Notes under the pieces: generated by a model
The model's database searches: none
Seen by the model: only the letters and a program-made list of their open reading frames with translations
What the model was told of the DNA's origin: nothing
Translations under genes and position numbers: made by a program
In this document: positions 21,021-59,628 of the stretch, one piece after another
Numbering within the stretch: the first letter of the stretch is position 1
How the letters are laid out: each line of letters begins with the position of its first letter
Source: Clostridia bacterium
GTDB taxonomy: Bacteria > Bacillota > Clostridia > Christensenellales > CAG-138
DNA length: 64,000 nt
Direction: 5' to 3'
Assembly (NCBI GenBank): GCA_030533005.1
Contig: JAUNJX010000007.1
Span: 1,166-65,165 of the forward strand

Positions 21021-21971
21021 ATGCCAAAGGGTGTACGCACCATCGCCATATTGCTTTGCGTGCTTTTGCTGTGCACCGGCTGCACCGCACAGGAGACGCT
21101 TGCCGATGAAAGCCGCGCGCTGTCTGCACTGCGCGTTTGCTATCGCAGCGCCAAGCTGATCGCTACAGGCGTGTGCACGCGGATGTATTACGGCGAAAAC
21201 GGCGCCGTTCTTTCCGAATTTCGTCTTAGCGAGGTGCTTGCTGGACGCGGCGAGCCCGGCGACGTCATCACCTGCGAAACGGAGGCGATGACGCTGCAAG
21301 CGTCCTATTTGTGCTACTTCACTTATGATGCGGCAAACCGGGCGCAGGCCGTCTCTTTGGCGATCTGCCCATGGGATACCGACGCCAACGAAATACAATA
21401 TGAAGAAAGTACCCTCTCCCTCACCGCGGTCCGCGAGGATATGGCGCTTTTGCAAAACGTCATCATTGCGCCGCCTGACACCTGGTACTATGGCAACATC
21501 CTGCAGCTTATGGAGGCGTGCACCGAGGTGTTCATAGGGCGCGTCACACAGGTGCCGGCGCTTGCCGATACGGAATTCCGCGAGGAATCCGGCAGCGCCA
21601 CCATCGAGCATACCATGCCCGCGAGCATCGTTCCCGTCACGGTATACGGCAGCATCAAGGGCACGCTGCGCTACGGCGAGGCCGTCTCCTTCGTCAACGT
21701 ACCCGCCCACGCGGCGGATATGCTGGACGCAGCGACGCTCACCGCCGTGCAGGCTGATGCGGCGTCTCTGCCGGCGCTTCGTGAGGGCGCATTCTGCATT
21801 TTCTTCCTGCTTCGCGGCCCGGACGCCAAGCAGGAAAGCTATTTTTGCGTCAATCCCCTGCAAGGCTTCATCCCCTTGGAGGAGGATATTCTGCTCGTGC
21901 CGCAGGGCAACGAGGCGTTTTCCTCCTGCGCAACGCTGCTGGATTTCCTGCACGCCATACAGAACGTGTAA
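21021..21971 (+). CDS. Hypothetical lipoprotein with an apparent internal duplication
   Basis: Signal peptide with lipobox CTGC; RBS GGAGG; two similar halves (SAKLIATGVC / CTEVFIGRVT). Confidence 0.65.
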   Translation: MPKGVRTIAILLCVLLLCTGCTAQETLADESRALSALRVCYRSAKLIATGVCTRMYYGENGAVLSEFRLSEVLAGRGEPGDVITCETEAMTLQASYLCYFTYDAANRAQAVSLAICPWDTDANEIQYEESTLSLTAVREDMALLQNVIIAPPDTWYYGNILQLMEACTEVFIGRVTQVPALADTEFREESGSATIEHTMPASIVPVTVYGSIKGTLRYGEAVSFVNVPAHAADMLDAATLTAVQADAASLPALREGAFCIFFLLRGPDAKQESYFCVNPLQGFIPLEEDILLVPQGNEAFSSCATLLDFLHAIQNV

Positions 21972-31530: not shown

Positions 31531-31803
31531 TTTGCCGCGCTAGGCGGGGAGTCAGCGGTGCCCTGTACCTGCAATCCGCTATAGCAGGGCTGAATTCCCG
31601 TGCCGAGGCAAACATCTGTGGGGCTGGTGCCGTCATGCGGTGCTGAGGGCCGGGTCCCGTGCAATCGACGTCTGTGAACCATGTCAGATCCTGACGGAAG
31701 CAGCATTAAGCGGAATCGTCGATGTGCCGCGGGTTTACCTGGCCGGAGCCGTACGCCGGCGTGCCGCCCATGGATGCTTTGTCCAAGCGCGGGTGCGCGG
31801 CAA
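31531..31803 (+). ncRNA. ffs: Large bacterial signal recognition particle RNA (scRNA, with Alu domain)
   Basis: 5' TTTGCCGCGCTAGGCGGGGAGTCAGCGGTGCCCTGTACCTGCAATCCGCT closely resembles Bacillus scRNA; helix-8 GTCAGATCCTGACGGAAGCAGC; 5' TTGCCGCGC pairs with 3' GCGCGGCAA. Confidence 0.93.
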
Positions 31804-31810
31804 TTTATTT

Positions 31811-31977
31811 TCGGCCAAGATCAAATGATCTTGGCCGATGTTTTTCCTCATTTTGACTATGCCCTGTGGGCATGGCCGTCAAAACGAGAAAGGGGGCGGC
31901 CACATGGGCCTATCCGTTCCATCGGCAAAGCCGATGGAGCCGGAATATAGTCAAGGGGACTGCCCCTTGACAATCCC
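31811..31977 (+). repeat. Five-hairpin non-coding element, diverged copy C
   Basis: Same hairpin order and similar length as copies A and B; shares the terminal AGTCAAGGGG-loop-CCCCTTGACAATCCC and a first hairpin core AAGATC/GATCTT. Confidence 0.65.
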
Positions 31978-32002
31978 CTTGCAATAAAAGGTTTATACAA
32001 AT

Positions 32003-40243: not shown

Positions 40244-40924
40244 ATGGCCGCAAAAAGCTTATCAGAGCGCACCGCCGACGCGCTCTACGACATGATCATG
40301 ACGGAAAAAGCCTTTCTTCCCGGCGATAAGCTCCCCAACGAAAACGAGCTTTCCGACCGTCTTGGCGTAAGCCGCGCCACGCTGCGCGAAGCCATACGTT
40401 CCCTTGTGGCGCAGGGCATTTTGCGGGTGCATCGCGGCAAGGGCACCTTCATCACGGACAACGTGTATGAAAGCGCCTTCGGCTTTGACCAGCTCGACCG
40501 GGCACGGGTGCGCTTGAAGGATCTATACGAAATGCGCCTTATATTCGAGCCGCAGTGCATTGCATTCGCCTGTGTGCGCGCTTCCGACGAGGAGATCGAG
40601 CACATATGCCGGCAGGGCAACAAGGTAATACGGGAAATAGAGACGCAGGACGCGAATTGGCCGGAAAGCGACCAGCGTTTCCACATGCTTATCAGCAAGG
40701 CCTCCCATAACGAATTCATCATCCAGCTTTTCCCCATCATCAATTCCGCCGTGCACGAGACCATGGAGATCGCCAACAACCAGAAGGTGCTGGAGGATTT
40801 AACCATCTCGGATAACCGGCTTATCATGGAATTTCTGACACGGCGGGACGCGAAGGGCGCAAGCTGTGCCTTGAACCTGCACATGCGCCATACCATTAAC
40901 GCCTTGGGCTTAGACAAAAACTGA
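40244..40924 (+). CDS. FadR/GntR family transcriptional regulator
   Basis: PGDKLPNENELSDRLGVSRATLREAIRSL...GKGTF; FCD-like C-terminus. Confidence 0.93.
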   Translation: MAAKSLSERTADALYDMIMTEKAFLPGDKLPNENELSDRLGVSRATLREAIRSLVAQGILRVHRGKGTFITDNVYESAFGFDQLDRARVRLKDLYEMRLIFEPQCIAFACVRASDEEIEHICRQGNKVIREIETQDANWPESDQRFHMLISKASHNEFIIQLFPIINSAVHETMEIANNQKVLEDLTISDNRLIMEFLTRRDAKGASCALNLHMRHTINALGLDKN

Positions 40925-40939
40925 CATTGCGGGCATAGA

Positions 40940-40971
40940 AAAGGCGTACGGAGGGATTCCGTACGCCTTTT
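40940..40971. terminator. Bidirectional terminator, left copy of a 32-bp direct repeat
   Basis: AAAGGCGTACGGAGGGATTCCGTACGCCTTTT. Confidence 0.85.
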
Positions 40972-41171
40972 AGCTTATCGACAAAGGTCATTCGACCTTT
41001 GTCGATGGTTACAATTTGCAACTGTTCGCTACTCTCACGGTCGTTGCAAATTGCAGAGAAACCCTTGCTGCGCAAGGCCTTCCGCCCTCACCGCACATGT
41101 CGCTTCGGGCGGTTGAAAGTCAAGGGGTTTCGACCCCTTAACAATCCCTAAGGGGGTTTGTCGATGGTCTG
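40971..41171 (+). mobile_element. Putative MITE (~200 bp) carrying five-hairpin element copy A
   Basis: Imperfect inverted ends TAGCTTATCGACAAA / TTTGTCGATGGTCTG; flanked by identical 32-bp repeats; interior homologous to 49569-49738. Confidence 0.7.
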
Positions 41172-41203
41172 AAAGGCGTACGGAGGGATTCCGTACGCCT
41201 TTT
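41172..41203. terminator. Bidirectional terminator, right copy of the 32-bp direct repeat
   Basis: Identical to 40940-40971. Confidence 0.85.
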
Positions 41204-41214
41204 CTGTTCAAGCA

Positions 41215-42831
41215 TTATCTGTCTTTTCGCCGTTTCAGCACGGGGATCGCGCCCGCAAGCACAAGCAGCACCATGCCGCATGCCGCGCCGCCCGTAGAGG
41301 GCACGCCCGCAACGGGCGTTTTGCCAAGCTTTTCTTCCTTCAGCCTTTTCGCTTCCGCTTCGCGTTCCCGCCACGCCGCAAGGTCAAAATCCGTAAAGCC
41401 GCTGTTGATCGCGCGGCTCGTGCCGCTTCCGCCGCCCGATCCTCCACGCTGCACGATCATGAAGGGGCTGCACGCCGTTATGGTCATCTCTAAGCCCGTG
41501 CCGTCCGCCGCTACGCGCATGTCCTCATAGACGATGCTGCCGTTCTGCAATTTATGCGCCGCCTTGTAGACTGCACCGCTCACTACGGCATAGGGTATTT
41601 TGACCGTCTCCGCCTTGGGCAAGGTATAGATGATACCCCGCGCCGGGTCGTTCGCGTCGCTGCGCGCGCCCGACCATGCCTGCAGCTCGAATTTTTCGCC
41701 AAACGCGCTGTAGCCAGCGGCGGCAGCCGCACGTTCAAGCTCTGCGCCATCGGCGGCGTTAAGCAAGGGACGCTTCACGATGGTGACCTTGTCCGCGTCC
41801 GCCACAGCATCGCCGTTGGGGTCATGATTGCCGCCCGCGTCCCATGTAAGGTCGGAATAGGATATTAAGCCCACCGCGCCGTCGCCGTCGATATGTCCGA
41901 CCAATTCGTCTGTCAGCATGCTCTGCTCCGTTGCGACGATCAAGCCCTCGTTATGGATCGCGCCGTTGGGGCCGATCTCAAGGGCTGCACTTTTGCCGGG
42001 CGATGCAAATAAATTCAGATACCCGCCGCGCGTGATCACCAGCGTCCCCTCGATACGAAGCGTCGTGTTGCCAAGGCTCCATATCATCCTGTCGGGTATG
42101 ATAAGGCGCGCGCCCGCAGGCACCGTCAGCACGTTGCCGCCACCGTAATTCGCCGCCTCGTAGATCATTTTATGCCCCAGCTTGCCGGGTACGCTGGTGA
42201 ATATGGCGTAGTATTCGTTGCCGGCGCTCGCGTAACGCTGCATCAAATCAAAGGCGGGCTTGACATACTGCGGCATCATGATGGAAAACGGCCACTCCCT
42301 GTTGCCGATGGTCACCGGGTCACCGTCATAATTCACCGCATTGCCGCGCCTGTTTTGTATCGTCACGGGTATCACCGCCTGCTTGCCCATTTGATCCGTG
42401 ATGGTCACGTTCGCCGTACCCGCACCCATGGCAATCAGCACCACATGCGGATATTCAAAGCCTATCCAATCCACATGCACGACGTTTTCGTTGCTGGAGG
42501 TTATGGCCGTGGGGCGCACGCGCGCCGCCGTCGTTGACGGATCATAATCCGGCATGGGCCAGCCCTGTCCCGCGCTGTCCAGGAAACCGCCAGAGGACAC
42601 CGGGGTCGCGCCGCTTGAATCGATGGTGAAATGCGGCAGCACGCGCAACGCAGCGCCATAGCCGTTAGAAAACGAAGCCACTGGCAATCTGCTTGCCTGC
42701 CCGTTTGCCGGGTGCGTATCGCCGCCAAGCGGCCAAAGCTCGTGCAGCACCAGCGTGCCTGCAGCGCTCGCGCTCACGGCGACGCCAAGGACGAGAACGA
42801 CCGCCAGGCAAAGCGAAAATATCCTGCGCAT
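41215..42831 (-). CDS. Secreted, probably sortase-anchored surface protein with an Ig-like segment
   Basis: Signal peptide MRRIFSLCLAVVLVLGVAVSASA; SSNENVV...GAGTANVTIT (Big_2-like); C-terminal VPSTG + hydrophobic stretch + KRRKDR. Confidence 0.75.
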   Translation of the reverse strand: MRRIFSLCLAVVLVLGVAVSASAAGTLVLHELWPLGGDTHPANGQASRLPVASFSNGYGAALRVLPHFTIDSSGATPVSSGGFLDSAGQGWPMPDYDPSTTAARVRPTAITSSNENVVHVDWIGFEYPHVVLIAMGAGTANVTITDQMGKQAVIPVTIQNRRGNAVNYDGDPVTIGNREWPFSIMMPQYVKPAFDLMQRYASAGNEYYAIFTSVPGKLGHKMIYEAANYGGGNVLTVPAGARLIIPDRMIWSLGNTTLRIEGTLVITRGGYLNLFASPGKSAALEIGPNGAIHNEGLIVATEQSMLTDELVGHIDGDGAVGLISYSDLTWDAGGNHDPNGDAVADADKVTIVKRPLLNAADGAELERAAAAAGYSAFGEKFELQAWSGARSDANDPARGIIYTLPKAETVKIPYAVVSGAVYKAAHKLQNGSIVYEDMRVAADGTGLEMTITACSPFMIVQRGGSGGGSGTSRAINSGFTDFDLAAWREREAEAKRLKEEKLGKTPVAGVPSTGGAACGMVLLVLAGAIPVLKRRKDR

Positions 42832-42904
42832 AAGAAAAGCCCCCCTATGTATCCATATGGGGGCAGTATAGCAAATCGCAGCCTGACTTTGGTATGCAGG
42901 CTGC

Positions 42905-44287
42905 TTACCGCAACCCGTTTTCGTAGGCTTTTGCGGCATTCGCCATAATGACGGCAAGCTCGCCCATGGTGTAATGATCGTGCTTTCCTACGCCGTCAAA
43001 GATCCCGTTTTCCGCAACGAAGGGCTCCGCGACGCGGATACCCGGATATTCGCCCGTATCCTCCTTGCCCATCAGCGATTCCCAGTCCCCCACACGCGCC
43101 GGCCAGAAGAATTTCACCACGCAATAGGTAAGGATGCGCTTATCCACGCGGTCGTCATCCTCCATGATCCAAGGAAAGAAGCTGTGATCCGATTCATGCG
43201 GATAGCGCGGCTCCGGCTCGGGCAGGTTCTGCATATAGACGCCATCCAGCCCAAACACCCGCACACCCATGTCGCGGATGGTTCCGTTTGTGACATAGCC
43301 CGCCTCCTCGCCGTCAGCCGTAAAGAAATCCGTGCCGAATTTTTCATTGAGATACGCAACGGATTCTTCTATCAAGGCAGGGTCGGCGTCCGTTACCCAC
43401 ATGGCGTCGTCCACGCCGAACACATGGGCGGGCTTTTTGCTCTCCCCGATGCGTATGCCGATAAGCAGCGCCGCAGTCAGGCTCAACAGCGCCGCAGACG
43501 CAATGACAAGGCCGCGCAGCAGCCTTCTTTGCGGACGAAGCTGCAAAAGCGCGCGCTGGAAGGCGGCGGCGCTCGCATAGCGATCCTTGGGCGCAAAGGC
43601 GGTGCTTCTTCGCACGACCTCCGCCACCTCTTTTTTCCGTATCCGCGCATACGCGTCCGGCAGCGTGATCTCCCCCGTGAGCATATACAGCAACACCATG
43701 CCCAACGCGTATACATCCGTACGCGCGTCCGTCTGCGCATAGCCGTACTGCTCCGGCGGGCAAAACGCCGCGGTGCCAAGGGCCTGCGTGTCGCGCCTGC
43801 TGTCGGGATCGTATTCTCTTGCAATGCCAAAGTCGATCAGATACGGACGCTCGTCCATCCCAATGATGATGTTCTGCGGCTTCACATCTCTATGGATCAC
43901 GGGCGGCTGCTGCGCATGCAGATACGAAAGCGTATCGCAAAGCGATATGGCGATAGACAGCGCCTGCTTTTCGCCCGGATGCCTTTCCTCCCTATAGCGA
44001 TCAAGCGGGCAGCCCTCGATATAATCCCGCACAAGGTAACAGCATGTCCCGTCCGTATAGGTATCGCGCCATTTGGGAATAAGCGGATATGCCAGGCGCG
44101 ATAAAATTCCCCCCTCCTCGGCTTGCGCGGCGTCCTTGGCAAAGCATTTCACGATGCAGCTTTGGCCGCTTTCGCGCGCCCTTGCCAGTATGGTTTCCGC
44201 GCCGTCCTCTTTTTTTGAGAGCAGCTCCAACAGCTCATATTTTTCCAGCAGGGCAGAAGGATACGTCCCTGTAAAATCCATCGTCAT
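42905..44287 (-). CDS. Membrane Hanks-type Ser/Thr protein kinase
   Basis: HRDVKPQNII, DFGIAR, GTAAFCPPEQY, DVYALG; one TM helix (LVIASAALLSLTAALLIGI); C-terminal extracytoplasmic domain. Confidence 0.9.
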   Translation of the reverse strand: MTMDFTGTYPSALLEKYELLELLSKKEDGAETILARARESGQSCIVKCFAKDAAQAEEGGILSRLAYPLIPKWRDTYTDGTCCYLVRDYIEGCPLDRYREERHPGEKQALSIAISLCDTLSYLHAQQPPVIHRDVKPQNIIIGMDERPYLIDFGIAREYDPDSRRDTQALGTAAFCPPEQYGYAQTDARTDVYALGMVLLYMLTGEITLPDAYARIRKKEVAEVVRRSTAFAPKDRYASAAAFQRALLQLRPQRRLLRGLVIASAALLSLTAALLIGIRIGESKKPAHVFGVDDAMWVTDADPALIEESVAYLNEKFGTDFFTADGEEAGYVTNGTIRDMGVRVFGLDGVYMQNLPEPEPRYPHESDHSFFPWIMEDDDRVDKRILTYCVVKFFWPARVGDWESLMGKEDTGEYPGIRVAEPFVAENGIFDGVGKHDHYTMGELAVIMANAAKAYENGLR

Positions 44288-44727
44288 TCTTTTCTCTCTC
44301 CCAGAAGCGTCGCGCCTCTTTCATGAAGCAGCTCCTGCGTTTGGAAAATGTCATAGTGGTTGCTGATCGCAAAAAGCAGCGCCGCGTCCCGCTCTATACG
44401 CGGATACAGCGCGGGCTTTTGCGCGGACGAAAGCATATGCTGGCTCTCCTCCACGTCCAGCCCCAGCCCTATGCAAAGCTGCACGACCTTATCGCGGCCC
44501 GGCGCGCGCACGCCAGAAAGAAGCTGATAGCCATATACGCGTTCGACGCCGCTTTTGGCGATCAGCTGTTCCTTGGTCATGCCGGTTCTTTGCAGATGCG
44601 CCGCCACCCGCTCCTGAAAGGACGCGACATGCAGCGCATCCCGATTTTCCCTTACAAAGCATGAAAAATCGCGGGACGCGAAGATGCGGTTGAGCAGCGC
44701 CCCGGTGGTAAGCCGTTTTTGTTCCAT
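44284..44727 (-). CDS. XRE-like HTH protein
   Basis: GMTKEQLIAKSGVERVYGYQLLSGVRAPGRDKVVQLCIGL; RBS AGGGAG before ATG at 44727; stop overlaps the kinase ATG. Confidence 0.8.
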   Translation of the reverse strand: MEQKRLTTGALLNRIFASRDFSCFVRENRDALHVASFQERVAAHLQRTGMTKEQLIAKSGVERVYGYQLLSGVRAPGRDKVVQLCIGLGLDVEESQHMLSSAQKPALYPRIERDAALLFAISNHYDIFQTQELLHERGATLLGERKE

Positions 44728-44744
44728 GGCGATCTCCCTGTGCG

Positions 44745-46070
44745 TCAATATTCCTCGCGCCCGGTCGCGTTGGTGAATTTGGCGACGTTATCGATCCACG
44801 CAAGATGCACCGTGCCTGTGGGGCCGTTTCGGTGCTTGGCGACGATCAGCTCCGTATCGTTATCGTCGCTTTCGCCATAGACGGCGGGGCGGTAGAGCAT
44901 CATAATGATATCCGCGTCCTGCTCGATGGCGCCGGATTCACGCAGATCCGCCATCATGGGGCGGTGATCCTTACGCGCCTCGGGGCCGCGGGAAAGCTGG
45001 GAAAGCAATATAATGGGGATATTCAGCTCGCGCGCCATGATCTTGAGGGAGCGCGTGATCTCGGATATCTCGAGCACACGGTTGTCCGATTTGCCGGAAG
45101 TCTGCATCAGCTGCAAATAGTCGATGATGATAAGATCCAGCCCCTCGCGGGACTGCAAGCGCCTGCACTTGCTGCGAATGCCCGCAACGCCTGCCGCCGC
45201 GTTGTCGTCGATATAGATGTTGCAGCCCGAAAGTGAGGGCAGCGCGTCCGCGATGCGCAGCAGCTCATCGTCCTCCACGCTGCCGCTGTTGACGTGCTGC
45301 ATGTCTACAGCCGCCTCGGCGCAGAGCATGCGCTTGACGAGCTGCTCGGCGGACATTTCCAGGCTGAATATGCATACCGTGGCGCCCTTGAGCGCCGCGT
45401 TTTGCGCCAAATTCAGCGCGAACGCCGTTTTGCCCATGGAGGGGCGTCCCGCGATGATGATGAGGTCGCTTTTTTGCAGGCCGCTTGTCATGGCGTCCAA
45501 GTCCGTAAAGCCCGTGGGCACGCCCACAAGGCTACCCTTATGCTTGATCAGCTCGCCTATGTGATCATAGCTTTCGATCAGGGTATCGCTGATGTGCACC
45601 AGCGTATCCTGCTTTTTGCCCATGGAGATGTTGTAAACGGCGCGCTCCGCGTCGTCGAGCATCTGTTCAAGCGGCTTTGCGCCCTCCATCGCGTCATGGA
45701 CGATGCCGCCGCCCGCTTCCGCAAGCCGCCGCATGATGGAGCGTTCCTCCACGATCTCGATATACTTTTCCACGTTGGCAGCCGTGGGCGTTACCATGGA
45801 AAGCTCCGCAAGGTACGCCAAATTGCCAGCCATCGTGAGCTTTCCGTCGCGCTGGAGCATCTCGGCGAGCGTCACCACATCCACGATGCTGCCCTTTGCC
45901 GCGACCTTTGCCATGGCGTCAAAAATGACCTGATGGCGCGGCTGGAAAAAGTCGCTGACGACCAGGCGCTCCAGCGCCGTCTCCACAGCGCTTTGCGCCA
46001 GAATCATGCTGCCCAGCACCGCGCGTTCGGCCTCCTCGTTGCGGGGCATGGTGTTTGTGCCTGTGAGCAT
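44745..46070 (-). CDS. dnaB: Replicative DNA helicase
   Basis: EAERAVLG, GRPSMGKT, FSLEM, IDYLQLM, LSQLSR, DLRESGAIEQDAD, KHRNGPTG. Confidence 0.97.
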   Translation of the reverse strand: MLTGTNTMPRNEEAERAVLGSMILAQSAVETALERLVVSDFFQPRHQVIFDAMAKVAAKGSIVDVVTLAEMLQRDGKLTMAGNLAYLAELSMVTPTAANVEKYIEIVEERSIMRRLAEAGGGIVHDAMEGAKPLEQMLDDAERAVYNISMGKKQDTLVHISDTLIESYDHIGELIKHKGSLVGVPTGFTDLDAMTSGLQKSDLIIIAGRPSMGKTAFALNLAQNAALKGATVCIFSLEMSAEQLVKRMLCAEAAVDMQHVNSGSVEDDELLRIADALPSLSGCNIYIDDNAAAGVAGIRSKCRRLQSREGLDLIIIDYLQLMQTSGKSDNRVLEISEITRSLKIMARELNIPIILLSQLSRGPEARKDHRPMMADLRESGAIEQDADIIMMLYRPAVYGESDDNDTELIVAKHRNGPTGTVHLAWIDNVAKFTNATGREEY

Positions 46071-46074
46071 GGGA

Positions 46075-46524
46075 TTACTCCTTTATCGGCAGTACCTCTA
46101 CCTTGAATTTGCTGTCGGTCTTTTCGTATAGATGCGCCGTCACGTCCGTAATGCCAAGGGTCTTGATGGGCTCGTCAAGGCGTATCTTTTTCTTATCCAC
46201 CTCGATATCGTACTGCTCCTTTAGCGCCTGCGCGATCTCCGCAACGCCTATGGAGCCGAACAAGCGCCCCTGCCCGGCCTTTGCATAGACCTTCACGGTC
46301 AGGCCGCTCATCTCGTTGGCAAGCGCCTTGGCGTTTTTGCGCTGCACCTCCAGCCTGTGCTGATCCGCGCCTTTTTTGAGGGTGGCCGCGTGCATGTTAT
46401 TGGCGTCCGCCATGACCGCAAGACCCTGCGGGATGAGGAAATTGCGGGCATAGCCGTCGTTGACGTTGACGATCTCGCCGTTTTTGCCCTTGCCCTTTAC
46501 ATCCGCCGTTAATAGTACCTTCAT
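46075..46524 (-). CDS. rplI: 50S ribosomal protein L9
   Basis: [13 protein letters not shown]...[15 protein letters not shown]. Confidence 0.97.
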
Positions 46525-48473
46525 TTGATATCCGCCTCCTGTAAATATGATTGTATGGCAGCCGTAAGCTGCTCTATCGCCTCATCGATGGTCACGTTTC
46601 TCAGCTGCGCGCCCGCTACCGTCATGTGTCCCCCGCCGCCAAGCTTCTCAAGTATCAGCTGCACGCTTATAACGCCCGTGCTGCGCCCGCTGATCATCAC
46701 CACGCCGTTGATGTTGGAGAGTACGAACGCCGCCGAAATATCCCGTATGGTGATCAGCTCATCCGCTGCCTGCGCAGCGATCAGCTGCGCGTCCGACATG
46801 CCGTCGGGGCAGGTGGAGATGGCAATGCCCTTTTCCATGATCAAGGCGGACTGCACCACGCGCGTGCGCTCCCGGTACACCGCCATATCGTCCTGAAACA
46901 TCATCTTGACCGCGCTGTTGTCCGCGCCGCTGCGCTTTAGGTAGCTCGCCGCCTCGAAGGTGCGCGCGCCCACGTTGAACACGAACCGCTTGGTGTCAAG
47001 CGTGATGCCTGTAAGCAGCGCACCGCACTCAAAGGTGGTGGGCTTTACGTTATCGTCAAAATACTGGATGACCTCGGTGACGATCTCGCAGACCGACGAC
47101 GCGCCCGCCTCCATATAGCTTAACGTCGGGTTCGCCAGCGCGTCCACGGGCCGCCTGTGATGATCGATGATGACGGTCTTGCCCGCCCGCTCGTAGAGCG
47201 ACTTATCCATGACCGTCGTGGAGCGCTGCGTATCCACCACCACCATCACCGCGTCCGGACGCATGATGGCATGCGCCTGCTCCGGCGTGAGGATGCGTTC
47301 ATGGTATATCTTATTGGCGCGCATGGTATCAAGCGCCGCGCGTATGGTGATATTGGGCGCATCCAGCACCATATAGGCAAATTTGCAGTTGACGTGGTTG
47401 GCACAGCGCATTACGCCAAGGGCTGCGCCCACGCAGTCCATATCCGAATTCTTGTGCCCCATCACAAACACCTGATCGGTATTCTCGATAAGCTGCCGCA
47501 GCGCGCGGGCAAAAAGGCGTATCTTGACCCGGCTGTAGCGCGTTGTCACCATCTTGTTACCGCCGTAGAACACGAAGTTGGAGCCTTTTTTTACGACCGC
47601 CTGATCGCCGCCGCGCCCCAGCGCCAGCTCCATGCTCTCCCGCGCCGCCTCGTCCGACGCGTTCATGCGCTCCGCAGCGCCTATGGCGATGGAAAGCGTG
47701 ACGGACTGGTTGGTGCCCGTGTCGATTCCGCGGACGCTGTCGAGCAGCGGAAAGCGTTTCTTTTCAAGCTCCGCCAAGCGTTTCGCCTCAAAGAGCACAT
47801 AGAACTTGGCGTTCTCATAGCGGCGATAGACGCCCTCAACGCCCTGCACAAACTCCTTGACCTGCTTTTCCACCTCCGTCAGCACGGAATTGCGGCGGAA
47901 CTGCTCGTTGGCGGCAAGATCCTCGTAGTTATCCACGCTGATGATGGCGACCGTAGGCATCTGTTCCTCATAAAGGCGGGAATAGTGCAGCGCCTCCGTA
48001 CGATCGATCCAGTATTGGAAGGTAAGGGGTCGCATCTTGGCGTTCCGGCGCTTGACATGCATGTTGGTCACGGTAAAGCTGCGGCCATTGCGCTCGGTAA
48101 TAAGCGTTTTTTGCGGTATGGGCAGCTCGATGTTAGGCAGCGTCTGCTTGATGTCCTTGCCCGCATACATCGCGCGCAGGGCTTTGTTTTCCCAAAGGAT
48201 GCGTCCGTTTGCATCAAATATGCAGGCGGGAATATCCACGCGGCTGATCACGCTGCCCGCAGCGGACTGGTTGTCGCGGAAAACATCATCGTAAAGCGCC
48301 TGCGCCTCCTTGCGATAGCGTATGCCCTGCCCCAGCGCGAGCAGCAGCAGCGCGATGACCGCAACAGCCGCAAGCAGGCCGTAAAGCGGCCGCACGTCCT
48401 TAGCAAGCGCCGCGCAGCCCAGCAGCGTCGTGCAGGCAAAAAGAACGGTTATAAAGATAGGCGGTTTTCGCAC
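46521..48473 (-). CDS. gdpP: c-di-AMP phosphodiesterase GdpP/YybT (TM, PAS-like, degenerate GGDEF, DHH/DHHA1)
   Basis: [31 protein letters not shown]; synteny with rplI and dnaB. Confidence 0.9.
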
Positions 48474-48489
48474 GTCGTTACTCCTTTAC

Positions 48490-49446
48490 TCATTCCTCCG
48501 GCCCGTTGGTAGGCAGGTTTTTCAATCGGTCGCGCAGGTTGAAAACGCATTCCGCAATGCCCGTAAGGCAAAGCACAATGAGGCTGTAAGGGAAAAACAG
48601 GACATAGAGCACATAGCGCAGCGCCTGCCGCCCGCTAGACTGCCGGACGAACACGCGGGACATATACTCGCTGTAGCAAAACCCGTTCAGGGCAAATTCG
48701 CCCAGCAGGATCATTTCGATGGTAACGACGATGGCTCCTGCGTTTTTGAGGGACAGCAGCCGCACCGCGATCGCGCCCGCGACCAATATGCCAGCCCCCA
48801 TCAAGGATTCCTTTGTCAGCCGCCAGTCCCAAAGCTTTGCCATGGGTCTAAGCTTTGCGCCGCCCTTTAGGGCTATCCACCTTAAGAGCAGCACATCCGC
48901 AAAGGCATAGGCCATGGCGGTCGCCATGACGGTGATCATGGTCAATTGCGGCGTCATATCCAAAAGCACGGCGGAAAATGCCGGGGGCAGACTGTACCCC
49001 ACCACCTTGCCCATGGCCTCATAGAGTGTTAGCACCTGACCCGTCAGCTCCCGCATGGCGGCGTAAGCGTCCTCGCCCGCAAGCAGGGAGGGCAGGCAAA
49101 GCTCCAGATAATAGGCAACGGCAAAAAGCGCCGTCAGGCAGCCCACGGCGGAACGATATGGGCTTTGGTTTTTAAAAAGCAGTACGAGCGCCGCGGCGGC
49201 GGGCAGCAGCATAGCGATCGCATAAGGCGCCTGCACGCCCGTAACAAGACCCACGCCCGCACAGGCTGCGACAAAGGCCGCCACCGTATACATACCGCCC
49301 CAGCACAGCGCCACATACGCAAGCGCCACGGGCAAAAGCAGCAGCACAGGCACAAAAATGCCGCCCGCAGCGCCCCAAAGCCCCAAGGCGATTATGACCA
49401 GTATTCGTTTCATGGGTATGTTTGTTTCCAATTTTATATCCTTCAT
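48490..49446 (-). CDS. YybS / DUF2232 family membrane protein
   Basis: Polytopic hydrophobic protein directly upstream of gdpP, in the usual position. Confidence 0.75.
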   Translation of the reverse strand: MKDIKLETNIPMKRILVIIALGLWGAAGGIFVPVLLLLPVALAYVALCWGGMYTVAAFVAACAGVGLVTGVQAPYAIAMLLPAAAALVLLFKNQSPYRSAVGCLTALFAVAYYLELCLPSLLAGEDAYAAMRELTGQVLTLYEAMGKVVGYSLPPAFSAVLLDMTPQLTMITVMATAMAYAFADVLLLRWIALKGGAKLRPMAKLWDWRLTKESLMGAGILVAGAIAVRLLSLKNAGAIVVTIEMILLGEFALNGFCYSEYMSRVFVRQSSGRQALRYVLYVLFFPYSLIVLCLTGIAECVFNLRDRLKNLPTNGPEE

Positions 49447-49475
49447 CCTTTTCGGCTATTGTCTACACATATTTT

Positions 49476-49504
49476 ATTGTAGCGCAAGCGGGGGCAGATT
49501 ACAA
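49476..49504 (-). promoter_or_regulatory. Sigma-A promoter for yybS-gdpP-rplI-dnaB
   Basis: Minus strand TTGTAA, 17 nt, TACAAT. Confidence 0.6.
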
Positions 49505-49568
49505 CAAATTCGTACATGAACTCATGCGTACAGTATAAGCATAACTGTTTTAACGTAACCATAGCTTC

Positions 49569-49738
49569 GGGATTGTCAAGGGGCCGCGGCTCCTTGACTT
49601 CCAACCGCCCGAGGCGACATGTGCGGTGAGGGCGGAAGGCATTGTTTTGCAATGCCCTCTTTGCAATTTACAACGACCGTGAACGATAGGGAACAGTTGT
49701 AAATTGTAATCTCAGGCAAGGTCGCAGACCTTGCCTGA
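49569..49738 (-). repeat. Five-hairpin non-coding element, copy B
   Basis: Reverse complement aligns with 40977-41148, including the identical core GCCTTCCGCCCTCACCGCACATGTCGC, with compensatory stem changes. Confidence 0.85.
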
Positions 49739-49746
49739 AGAACGCA

Positions 49747-49772
49747 AAACAGCCGTCATAAGACGACTGTTT
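49747..49772 (-). terminator. Intrinsic terminator of rpsF-ssb-rpsR
   Basis: Minus strand AAACAGTCGTC-TTAT-GACGGCTGTTTT. Confidence 0.7.
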
Positions 49773-49809: not shown

Positions 49810-50055
49810 TTACTCTGCTACGTAGGGCAGCAGCGCCATAATGCGGGCGCGCTTGATGGCGATGGCCAGCTCGCGCTGGTGCCGTGCGCAAACGCCGCTC
49901 ATACGGCGGGGCATGATCTTGCCGGACTCGGTAACAAACTTGCGCAGCCTGCTCACGTCCTTATAATCGATATGCTCAACCTTATCTACGCAGAAGCCGC
50001 AAACCTTGCGGCGGCCCTTGCGGGGACGGGGTCTCATGTTTTTGCGTTCTTCCAT
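49810..50055 (-). CDS. rpsR: 30S ribosomal protein S18
   Basis: RKVCGFC...IDYKD...GKIMPRR...CARHQR...AIKRAR; zinc-binding form. Confidence 0.97.
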
Positions 50056-50091
50056 GGTCAAACTCCTTTCTCGGTAATATAGCCCCGTTGT

Positions 50092-57240: not shown

Positions 57241-57627
57241 ATGTTGGAAATCGGCCTGAAAGGCTGCGCGCAAACCACCGTCGGCACGGAAAACATCGCC
57301 TCAACCTATTCCTCGGGCTCGCTGCCCGTGTTTGCCACCCCTGCCATGCTCGCGCTGATGGAACAGGCGGCGCACACATGCGTGCAGCCCTATCTTGAGG
57401 AAGGGCAGGGCACCGTAGGCACGCTGCTCAACGTAAAACACCTTGCCGCCACACCGCTAGGCATGGGCGTGCGCGCGGAGTGCGAGCTGATCGAAGTGGA
57501 TCGCCGCCGCCTCGTTTTTACCGTTTGCGCCTATGACGACGTAGAGCGCATCGGCGAGGGCGTGCACGAGCGCTTCATCATCGACGACAGCCGTTTTATG
57601 GAAAAGGCGCGCACGAAGATCAAATAG
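57241..57627 (+). CDS. FlK-like hotdog-fold thioesterase
   Basis: VFATPAMLALME, TVGT..NVKHLAATPLG, IGEGVHER. Confidence 0.85.
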   Translation: MLEIGLKGCAQTTVGTENIASTYSSGSLPVFATPAMLALMEQAAHTCVQPYLEEGQGTVGTLLNVKHLAATPLGMGVRAECELIEVDRRRLVFTVCAYDDVERIGEGVHERFIIDDSRFMEKARTKIK

Positions 57628-57653
57628 CGTCTGCCACGCACAGGATCGCACAG

Positions 57654-57690
57654 AAAAAAACAAGGCCGCCAACCGGCGGTCTTGTTTTTT
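57654..57690. terminator. Bidirectional intrinsic terminator
   Basis: AAAAAAACAAGGCCGCC-AACC-GGCGGTCTTGTTTTTT. Confidence 0.85.
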
Positions 57691-57709
57691 GTGTTTGCTG
57701 GACGTTTGT

Positions 57710-59125
57710 TTATGCGTCTTCCTTCTTGTTGGACTCGCCAAGGCGCACGCCGGCGAAGTACTCTCTGGTGAGCTTGAAGACCACCGGGGAGAGTGCAAGC
57801 AGCGCTACCAAGTTGGGCAGTGCCATCAAGCCGTTGAGGGTATCGGCGATATCCCAAACAGCCTGCAGAGGCACAACCGCGCCGACCACAACGATCAGGC
57901 AGAACAGGATCTGATAGGGCTTAATGACCTTGGTGCCCAAGAGATACTCGGTGCAGCGGGTACCGTAGAGGCACCAGCTGAGGATGGTGGACACTGCGAA
58001 CAGCGTGATACCAACAGCAACCAGGATGCCGGCAAACTTCGCGCCATAGGTCATACCGAAGGCAGCGATGGTGAGGCCGGTGCCCGCGCTCTCGCCAAAG
58101 GCGATGGGCGTGCCGCTCATGAGGATAGCCAGAGCGGTCAGGGTGCAGATCACGATGGTGTCCATGAATACTTCAAAGATGCCCCAGAGGCCCTGACGAA
58201 CGGGGCTGTCCGTGTCAGCAGCAGCGTGGGCGATAGGCGCGGAGCCCAAGCCAGCCTCATTGGAGAAGATACCGCGGCTGATACCACGGCGCATGGCCGT
58301 CGAAATGCCAACGCCTACCAAGCCGCCGCCCAGCGCGGAGGGATTGAAAGCGCCCACGACGATGTCGCGGAGAACGCCGCCGATGTTGCCGATGTGCGTG
58401 ATGACAACGATGATCGCAGCCACGATGTAGATCGCCGCCATGGCGGGAACCAGCTTTTCAGTGGTCTTAGCGATGCTCTTCAAGCCGCCAAGCACGACAG
58501 CAGCGGTGAAGATCGCAACGACGATACCAACGATCAGATGCACGGTGTTCGTATTGATGTTGGGATTGAACTCGGCGATGGTGCCGGAGATGGAGGTCGC
58601 AATGGTGTTGATCTGGGTCATGTTGCCGATACCGAAGGCGGCAAGCGCTCCAAACACGGAGAATACGACGGCGAGCCATTTCCAGCTCTTGCCAAGGCCG
58701 TTGGAGATGTAGTACATGGGGCCGCCGACCCAGTCGCCCTTTTCGTTGCGCTCGCGGTAGTTGACCGCCAGCACGACTTCGGCGTACTTGGTGCACATGC
58801 CCAGCAGTGCGGAAACCCACATCCAGAAGACGGCGCCAGGGCCGCCCAATGCGATAGCGCCAGCGACGCCAGCGACGTTACCGGTACCAACCGTTGCCGC
58901 AAGAGCCGTTGCAAGTGCCTGGAAAGGCGTGACAGCGCCTTCGCCCGCCTCTTTCTTCTCGAACATCTTCATCAAGGTGTTCTTCATCGTGTAACCGAAT
59001 TTGCCAAACTGCATGCCCTTGGTGCGCAGCGTGTAATACAGGCCGGTGCCAAGAAGCAGGATCATGCCGGGCCAACCCCAGACGATACCGTTCAGCCAAG
59101 AGTTGAAACTGAGGAATCCATCCAT
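57710..59125 (-). CDS. Alanine/glycine:cation symporter (AGCS)
   Basis: ATVGTGNVAG, GGPGAVFWMW, GGPMYYI, FSNEAGLGS. Confidence 0.93.
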   Translation of the reverse strand: MDGFLSFNSWLNGIVWGWPGMILLLGTGLYYTLRTKGMQFGKFGYTMKNTLMKMFEKKEAGEGAVTPFQALATALAATVGTGNVAGVAGAIALGGPGAVFWMWVSALLGMCTKYAEVVLAVNYRERNEKGDWVGGPMYYISNGLGKSWKWLAVVFSVFGALAAFGIGNMTQINTIATSISGTIAEFNPNINTNTVHLIVGIVVAIFTAAVVLGGLKSIAKTTEKLVPAMAAIYIVAAIIVVITHIGNIGGVLRDIVVGAFNPSALGGGLVGVGISTAMRRGISRGIFSNEAGLGSAPIAHAAADTDSPVRQGLWGIFEVFMDTIVICTLTALAILMSGTPIAFGESAGTGLTIAAFGMTYGAKFAGILVAVGITLFAVSTILSWCLYGTRCTEYLLGTKVIKPYQILFCLIVVVGAVVPLQAVWDIADTLNGLMALPNLVALLALSPVVFKLTREYFAGVRLGESNKKEDA

Positions 59126-59628
59126 AAATGTTTCTTTCCTTTCTGATTACTGAATTTTTCTTTTGGTGATTTGAACTGGAAGAAGCTAACGTCCTGTTTA
59201 CATAAAAGTGTTTGCGAGAAAAGATGATATTAGGCTATCTGTATTGTGGACGGACGCATAGCGACTCTTCGCAGCACATCCAGCTTCGCATATCTTAACA
59301 TGCTGTGTTAATAAACGTCAATGGGTTTCTTTTGCCAAACGCCCAAAAATCATCGTCACAGCAGAGAAAAATGCTTATTTTCTCTGGATTTTCCGGTCAA
59401 GATTTTTACGCTTGCGCCATCCGCGGCCTCGCGCCCTCGTTTGTTGTTATATTATATAATGAATATTATACATTGTATTGTATCCAACCTGTATCTACAA
59501 ATAAAAGACCCTATGCGCCGCATCTGGCAGTTGCAATCCCCGTCCCGGTTATGTATAATGGCTTTACCATAATGTATGCTTTTGTGATTATGCAGAAGCA
59601 TAAATCTGATTTGGAGGATAAAAGGAAC

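Follow-up and report, generated by a model that had tools for sequence, protein, structure and literature searches.

We analysed a 64,000-nt stretch of the genome of a Clostridia bacterium (GenBank assembly GCA_030533005.1, contig JAUNJX010000007.1, positions 1,166 to 65,165 of the forward strand), here called the window, in which a non-coding element of about 200 bp with five hairpins is found in three copies. The genome as a whole (G000) comprises 2.26 Mb on 95 contigs and is 85% complete. Copy A of the element lies between a GntR-family gene with GntR/FCD domains (40244-40924, plus strand) and a 580-aa open reading frame (ORF; 41215-42957, minus strand). These two are separated by a bidirectional terminator hairpin at 40940-40971, and the same 32-mer is present again on the other side of copy A. 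Copy B lies next to rpsR, the gene of ribosomal protein S18 (49810-50061, minus strand), and the third copy begins 5 nt past the signal recognition particle (SRP) RNA gene (31535-31800). The element is mobile, has inverted ends, lands at hairpins and duplicates them. With a probability of roughly two in three, the copies belong to a large family of non-coding, non-autonomous DNA transposons, similar to MITEs (miniature transposable elements with inverted repeats), that duplicate their target hairpins. The positions in the window are as follows, with scores in bits from a covariance model built from 22 copies.

40972-41171, plus strand: copy A, about 200 bp and full length (224 bits over model positions 1-199)
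40940-40971, unstranded: left copy of the 32-bp target duplication, a 32-mer identical to 41172-41203
41172-41203, unstranded: right copy of the 32-bp target duplication, which is the second terminator copy
About 49545-49745, minus strand: copy B (172 bits), 81% identical to copy A
49746-49772, minus strand: rpsR terminator hairpin, abutting the left end of copy B
49530-49550, minus strand: probable remnant of a duplicate rpsR terminator, on the far side of copy B (AAACAGT..CTTAT..CTGT), read by eye
31805-31999, plus strand: third copy, diverged and of another subfamily with the H4 loop CAAAG (83.6 bits, E 6e-22), also matched by nhmmer

The original prediction for this locus had described copies A and B as a repeated unit of about 170 nt with five stems, each copy starting just downstream of a terminator. 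Both copies were found at their places with all five stems, and they align along their whole length with 82% mean column identity. The unit is longer than described, about 200 bp in each copy, and the third copy in the window had not been noted. The position just downstream of a terminator was also correct; what had been missed is the duplication of the terminator hairpin, which is the defining feature of the element. Copy A is represented by two other loci in G000 that are 100% identical to it over 172 nt and by two more at 99%. Copy B is an older copy with a degenerate right end, and the sequence at 49530-49550 is probably what is left of its rpsR terminator duplicate, although this was read by eye without a statistical test.

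The element inserts beside GC-rich hairpins, mostly rho-independent terminators, with joints that straddle the hairpin, and the whole hairpin is duplicated. Copy A has one 32-bp terminator hairpin on both flanks, and other young copies in G000 have duplicated hairpins of their own, 21-34 bp in length and each of them different. Duplicated flanking hairpins were also found in other species and genera. Both ends were in hand for 76 elements, and 32 of these had flanking direct repeats scoring at least 26, as compared with none of 760 mismatched pairs in which the left and right flanks of different elements were combined. The duplications were 13-34 bp long, differed at every site and were centred on a hairpin, and the cuts lay no more than about 6 nt from the base of the stem. 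Perfect stems of at least 7 bp occurred just upstream of 37 and just downstream of 28 of the 76 elements, in comparison to 7 of 253 control windows. Elements usually reside just 3' of genes, from which an intact terminator usually separates them. A crude count gave 19 elements with the upstream ORF on their own strand and 10 with it on the other strand; we set this count aside because the ORF picker had mis-called at least the neighbour of copy B.

In the congener G002 the locus of copy A lacks the element and carries just one terminator. Of 29 reconstructed empty sites, 7 had the T-tract of the terminator on the downstream side alone and 6 on the upstream side alone (as an A-tract); 11 had tracts on both sides and 5 had none. 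The element thus inserts in either orientation relative to the terminator, and its orientation is random. The empty site in G002 (C28, about 21289-21323; L084) reads ...TTTTGCTTATCGTATGGTTTAG after the terminator, which resembles the first 8 nt of the element followed by its last few nt; this may be the footprint of an excision or reflect a preference for such targets.

The terminal inverted repeats have the cross-genus consensus 5'-CAGNNTGTCGAAAAAGTG...TTTTTCGACANNCTG-3' (the left form is also given as CAGNNTGTCGAAAAA). In the genus of the window they read (C)AGCTTATCGACAAAGG...GGTTTGTCGATGGTCTG, with the short form AGCTTATCGACAAA...TTTGTCGATGGTCTG. The reverse complement of the right end, CAGACCATCGACAAACC, agrees with the left-end form CAGCTTATCGACAAAGG at 13 of 17 positions in G000. 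In copy A the ends and the five hairpins (H1 to H5), all on the plus strand, are placed as follows.

40972-40987: left terminal inverted repeat, AGCTTATCGACAAAGG, of which the outermost 1-5 nt differ among copies
40977-41006: H1, arms 40977-40989 and 40994-41006, a 13-bp stem with a 4-nt loop
41012-41053: H2, arms 41012-41022 and 41043-41053, an 11-bp stem with the conserved interior CTGTTC...CACGG
41063-41077: H3, arms 41063-41068 and 41072-41077, CCTTGC-TGC-GCAAGG
41082-41112: H4, arms 41082-41093 and 41101-41112, 12-nt arms with the conserved loop CACATGT
41119-41142: H5, arms 41119-41127 and 41134-41142, GTCAAGGGG-TTTCGA-CCCCTTAAC
41155-41171: right terminal inverted repeat, GGTTTGTCGATGGTCTG

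H1 consists of the left repeat, 4 nt and an inverted right-end-like repeat, and therefore the 12-mer TTTGTCGATGGT is present twice in direct orientation, once at 41000-41011, where it extends 5 nt beyond the H1 stem, and again in the right end. The interior of H2 forms an additional inner hairpin in other genera. In the subfamily of copy A the H4 arms form 6 + 2 bp with a 4x4 internal loop between them, and in other subfamilies they form a full 12-bp stem. Most of what had been taken for a nearly invariant H4 loop is accordingly stem in these other subfamilies, and it is the 7-nt loop CACATGT that is conserved. The unpaired motifs kept across genera are CACGG in H2, GAAA before H3 and CACATGT in the loop of H4. 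A 17-nt pattern of the left repeat was enriched over its reversed-pattern control in four of five genomes (102 vs 27 in G064, 141 vs 17 in G060, 64 vs 21 in G134 and 89 vs 26 in G045), and showed no enrichment in the fifth (36 vs 33). We read the right joint as mostly constant, with about 17 of 28 junction pairs joined 5 nt past ...GACA. At the left joint 0-5 nt were lost, or 1-3 extra nt were present, or the joint fell at a microhomology, and this was seen even among copies that are 97-100% identical. The copies differ by indels, and we infer that they have no reading frame in common.

Two smaller forms were found along with the full-length element. Mini-elements of about 43 bp, in which a loop of 4-6 nt joins the left repeat to the right repeat and nothing else is present, are dispersed in G000 (C48:14412-14446, C80:3160-3194, C76:13095-13134, C14:219-252 and C10:715-758), G002 and G045 (further loci L091-L096 and L217-L220). 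One of them had a 14-bp flanking duplication and some were located between two hairpins. Such mini-elements could move by themselves, or could have arisen by deletion between the 12-bp direct repeats. The other form is a 45-nt module of two hairpins, which sits in the H4 loop of six G000 copies exactly at ACA|TGT and nowhere else in that genome (C72:21702-21746, C72:18602-18646, C31:37804-37848, C6:9510-9554, C51:6642-6686 and C76:11514-11555). The module was 98-100% identical even where its host copies otherwise differed widely, and in G019 it was found in reverse orientation. Either a nested micro-insertion or gene conversion may account for this module.

The compensatory changes listed in the original prediction are present in the sequence, and many more appeared in larger alignments. 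Copies A and B fold far more stably than their dinucleotide shuffles (z = -4.7 and -5.0, respectively, with none of 200 shuffles as stable), and the opposite strand of copy A also folds (z = -6.4). In an alignment of 22 sequences (A3), 90.3% of the cells were paired and 29 of 51 pairs had changed on both sides. None of 500 shuffles reached these values, and slid partners gave 6-10 double-changed pairs. In an alignment of 50 sequences (A2), 27 of the 33 pairs found with RNAalifold were compensated. Several H4 arm sequences occur side by side in G000 around one and the same loop, indicating that complementarity is kept and not the sequence of an arm or a protein-binding half-site. The stems contained 21 G·T and 26 A·C among the 1620 pair cells of a further alignment (A4), and 20 and 29, respectively, in A3. 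A4 was fitted to the model and its paired fraction leans toward structure; the comparison of G·T with A·C should stay unaffected. No promoter-like (sigma-70-like) site was found inside copy A or B. Because there is no G·T excess, no promoter and no fixed orientation to the terminator, the palindromes look constrained as DNA, in the form of cruciforms or of hairpins of either strand, and not as RNA.

The element belongs to a family with many copies and covarying hairpins, which agrees with the earlier claim that the two copies are not a neutral duplication. A profile of full copies gave 49 nhmmer matches at E<0.01 in G000, including deletion forms and sister subfamilies that have the same five-hairpin plan with different sequences. 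With plain BLAST the family was present in 12 of 41 related genomes. The covariance model was scored on 151 genomes of the same bacterial family, and full-length matches were obtained in 89 of them and in 34 of 50 genera, those in other genera scoring 105-157 bits. Many of the 151 genomes had at least 16 scored matches. A plasmid collection contained no match to copy A nor to a copy from another genus. No Rfam family matched the element when the window was scanned at gathering scores and both copies at E up to 10, and 15 element loci from other genera were also without a match at E up to 0.01. The element was accordingly not assigned to the Clostridiales-1 motif or to the IS605/HEARO-type motifs, which had been named as candidates.

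The sites of copies B and the third copy recur in other genomes. At the rpsR site of G002 a copy is likewise present (L165:2226-2383). The rpsR-site copies of the two species have a degenerate right end in common, yet each has the H4 arm variant of its own species, and this pattern implies either that the copies have undergone gene conversion with one another or that an element inserted at this terminator a second time. In G152, which belongs to another genus, an element again follows directly after the SRP RNA and has the SRP RNA terminator duplicated (L126:1501-1692). The SRP RNA terminator is a recurrent or ancient target. The 580-aa ORF next to copy A and a 318-aa ORF next to copy B (48490-49446, minus strand) gave no Pfam family at E up to 0.001.

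We searched for the enzyme that would mobilize the element. That such an enzyme is not encoded next to the copies, as had been suggested, was confirmed in G000, where the genes within a cluster of five copies are housekeeping genes (GidB, ParB and the glycine-cleavage system). Several candidate partners were rejected. DUF772, the domain of IS1182/IS5-type transposases, is present in 11 of 41 relatives, and none of the 12 loci fetched had a matching terminal repeat. IS256 is present in 39 of the 151 genomes; by our own tally 27 of these 39 also carry the element, as do 89 of all 151. The terminal repeat of the element was absent from all 20 IS256 loci inspected, and also from an N-terminal fragment of an IS256-family transposase at a contig end in G000 (C36:7688-8101), whose low-GC upstream region is unlike the ends of the element. 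IS1595 was found in 6, ISLre2 in 9 and PDDEXK_2 in 1 of the 151 genomes and ISNCY_2 over the cut-off in none, and none of these families, IS256 included, tracks the element. RVT_1 was present in 41 of 151 genomes and was uncorrelated with it. The sole Cas1 of G000 lies within an ordinary type I-E operon, together with Cas5e, Cas6e and a Cas2 fused to a DnaQ-like exonuclease (C68:5695-8994; L082). For IS110 there was a single sub-threshold match of 22 bits in G000, in a long ORF. The weak match is to the RuvC-like part (C4:8969-9175; L081) at the start of an open frame given as 1452 aa, which possibly encodes a Cas9-like protein. A pair of repeats 2.2 kb apart in G045 that could have been an insertion sequence (IS) proved to be two elements around the gene of a sodium symporter, a transporter. 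The 12-nt end motif with up to 2 mismatches had 283 mostly random matches in G000 and no exact copy outside the elements. The only long repeat of the G000 assembly is 1.8 kb in length with 89% identity (C84:54890-56696 and 57552-59365).

Several observations weigh against the reading as a transposon. No duplication was found at 44 of the 76 elements, and the length of the target duplication correlated only modestly with that of the perfect-stem hairpin (r = 0.34). No autonomous partner bearing the terminal repeats of the element was found, and so the word transposon is taken from the anatomy. G000 contains no IS-sized repeats, and profile searches of this genome gave no DUF772, RVT_1, DDE_Tnp_1, Y1_Tnp (PF01797) or rve, and also no IS1595, ISLre2, ISNCY_2 or PDDEXK_2 (Rpn) match; these absences are weak evidence because of the 85% completeness. 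Since most genomes of the family are fragmented assemblies, an IS that was collapsed or left unbinned is possible; the other option is a single-copy chromosomal enzyme, as with RAYTs. The ends of the element are less exact than DDE transposons usually leave them. The exact right and ragged left joints are unlike tidy cut-and-paste, and this asymmetry suggests copying from the right end with an imprecise finish. DNA palindromes can covary without selection, through template-switch correction of one arm from the other. The interior loops are strongly conserved across genera, which is unusual for a MITE and which recognition of the terminal repeats does not explain.

Four other explanations were weighed against the family of hairpin-duplicating transposons. 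One is a single-stranded-DNA element that resembles REP/REPIN, IS200/IS605 PATE or IS91; its hairpins, folded in single-stranded DNA, would be cleaved and joined by an HUH-type enzyme, or by another one that reads hairpins, whose single gene would lie elsewhere in the chromosome. The covarying stems and conserved loops speak for it. The high copy number of the element throughout a bacterial family in which ordinary IS families are rare or uncorrelated with it resembles the long-lived REPIN-RAYT pattern, and one precise and one ragged end are features of one-ended rolling-circle elements. HUH elements, however, make neither terminal inverted repeats nor target duplications, and here the former are present together with duplications at 32 of 76 sites. 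On these grounds the IS200/IS605 PATE and REP/REPIN identities proposed as comparators were rejected; there is also no Y1_Tnp match in G000 and no strand asymmetry in mismatches or orientation, and we consider this explanation unlikely. The structured non-coding RNA that the original prediction had named as one possibility, a small RNA or a cis-acting element of 3' untranslated regions repeated by chance and selected for RNA folding, would be expected to have five covarying helices with conserved loops and to lie directly after genes, as is usual here. The extra hairpins are found in loops only, like RNA expansion segments. Against this, the stems of neither alignment contain more G·T than A·C, both strands fold equally well, and the intact terminator usually stands between the upstream gene and the element. 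Both orientations to the T-tract occur, as do both orientations of the 45-nt loop module, and neither an internal promoter in copies A and B nor an Rfam match was found. An RNA explanation is thus quite improbable.

The joints could also be those of a SINE-like retroelement, in which a nick beside the hairpin would prime cDNA synthesis from the 3' end of the element and a second nick would follow on the opposite side. Target-primed reverse transcription of this kind would fit target duplications of variable length, a precise right end and a left end with lost bases, extra bases or a microhomology. The element has terminal inverted repeats, though, and lacks a promoter and a wobble excess; G000 has no RVT_1, and this domain, found in just 41 of 151 genomes, is absent from many element-rich genomes of 94-99% completeness, e.g. 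G019, G014, G045 and G060. We regard a retroelement as very improbable. The geometry would be matched by a Cas1-type integrase that attaches DNA at each border of a palindromic repeat, so that the repeat is duplicated on both sides of the insert, and G000 does encode Cas1. The operon of this Cas1, however, is the ordinary type I-E one described above, and an insert of 200 bp with a duplication whose length follows the hairpin does not suit the ruler-based integration of spacers or casposons, so that a role of Cas1 is hardly credible.

For the preferred reading, a MITE-like transposon that duplicates target hairpins, we propose the following mechanism. An enzyme supplied in trans would bind the terminal repeats, and the target would be recognized by its shape, as an extruded cruciform or hairpin. 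Strand transfer with an ordinary short stagger would then take place across the base of the extruded structure. Because an extruded palindrome puts its two flanks side by side, a short stagger would span the whole hairpin, and gap repair would copy the entire palindrome to both sides of the element. The internal palindromes would be kept at the DNA level and may serve transposition or donor recognition. Both flanking genes would retain a terminator, and the insertions would therefore be nearly harmless, which we propose as the reason for the high copy number and the spread through the family. A bolder version, which we put forward tentatively and think rather less likely than not to hold in full, is a form of shape-reading transposition not described before. 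In it an unrecognized and possibly single-copy chromosomal enzyme would insert the five-palindrome element across the base of an extruded terminator with asymmetric, target-primed DNA copying, and the element would be a long-term, family-wide resident like REPINs but with another chemistry.

If the preferred reading is true, the family would be a clear natural case of a mobile element that picks its target by DNA secondary structure and of a duplication whose length is that of the structure. It would bear on the capture of targets by transposases, on parasitic DNA that spares its host by leaving each neighbouring gene a terminator, and on the multiplication of intergenic regions and terminators in a large group of Bacillota of which most members are uncultured. 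The tens to more than 100 copies of the element per genome break assemblies, and with its absence from Rfam it is a structured repeat that is currently unannotated. An enzyme that targets cruciforms or hairpins is potentially of interest as a tool.

Several known systems share single features with the element. Group IIC introns insert right beside rho-independent terminator hairpins, which they recognize by shape. They consist of a ribozyme and a reverse transcriptase, are orientation-specific and make no duplication, whereas the element is found in both orientations, has no Rfam intron match, and is accompanied by no reverse transcriptase in G000. IS1182, IS1202/ISNCY and IS1634 are reputed to make direct repeats of tens of bp and served as unconfirmed leads. 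They differ from the present case in that DUF772 is absent from G000, the 12 DUF772 loci of relatives lack the terminal repeat and ISNCY_2 was over the cut-off in 0 of 151 genomes. The insertion sequences that target hairpin repeats are autonomous, use one conserved repeat family as target and make short or no duplications, in contrast to the element, which takes any terminator hairpin and duplicates it whole. Among them, IS1397/ISKpn1 and the IS110-family ISPpu9/ISPpu10, which insert in REPs, have in common with the element that the target is a DNA hairpin or palindrome and not a plain sequence (PMC1525189, PMC12288879 and bioRxiv 10.64898/2026.03.19.712850). When Cas1-Cas2 integrates a spacer, the new DNA is linked to each edge of a partly palindromic unit and this unit becomes duplicated, which is the nearest known geometry. 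It is an analogy only: the enzymes are different ones, the repeat is fixed and the mechanism is that of a ruler. In comparison to casposon or Cas1 integration the duplication of the element varies in length, and Cas1 was not found outside the CRISPR-Cas operon in G000.

REP, BIME and REPIN sequences with their RAYT (Y1) enzymes (PMC3333891) resemble the element as extragenic palindromes that follow genes, have a high copy number, persist throughout lineages and lack an adjacent transposase. Unlike the element, REPs lack terminal inverted repeats and do not duplicate their target, and no Y1_Tnp was found in the 85% complete G000. Full-text literature searches, which do not establish absence from print, gave no description of an element that duplicates terminator hairpins. 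The available portion of a 2024 review of prokaryotic MITEs (PMC10969869) likewise mentions no element that targets and duplicates terminators. Closest in overall build are the bacterial MITEs such as Correia, RUP and MITEAba12, which are also small and non-coding, have many intergenic copies with terminal inverted repeats and target duplications, and also have stable hairpins, deletion derivatives and nested forms. The duplications of these MITEs are of a fixed few bp, whereas those of the element are 13-34 bp and set by the target hairpin. The element differs further in its ragged ends, in having no parent IS that we found, and in an interior of five palindromes with their loops that is conserved across 34 genera. 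This family of miniature transposons, which targets and duplicates hairpins and is widespread in one family of Bacillota, is a variant of the known MITE kind.

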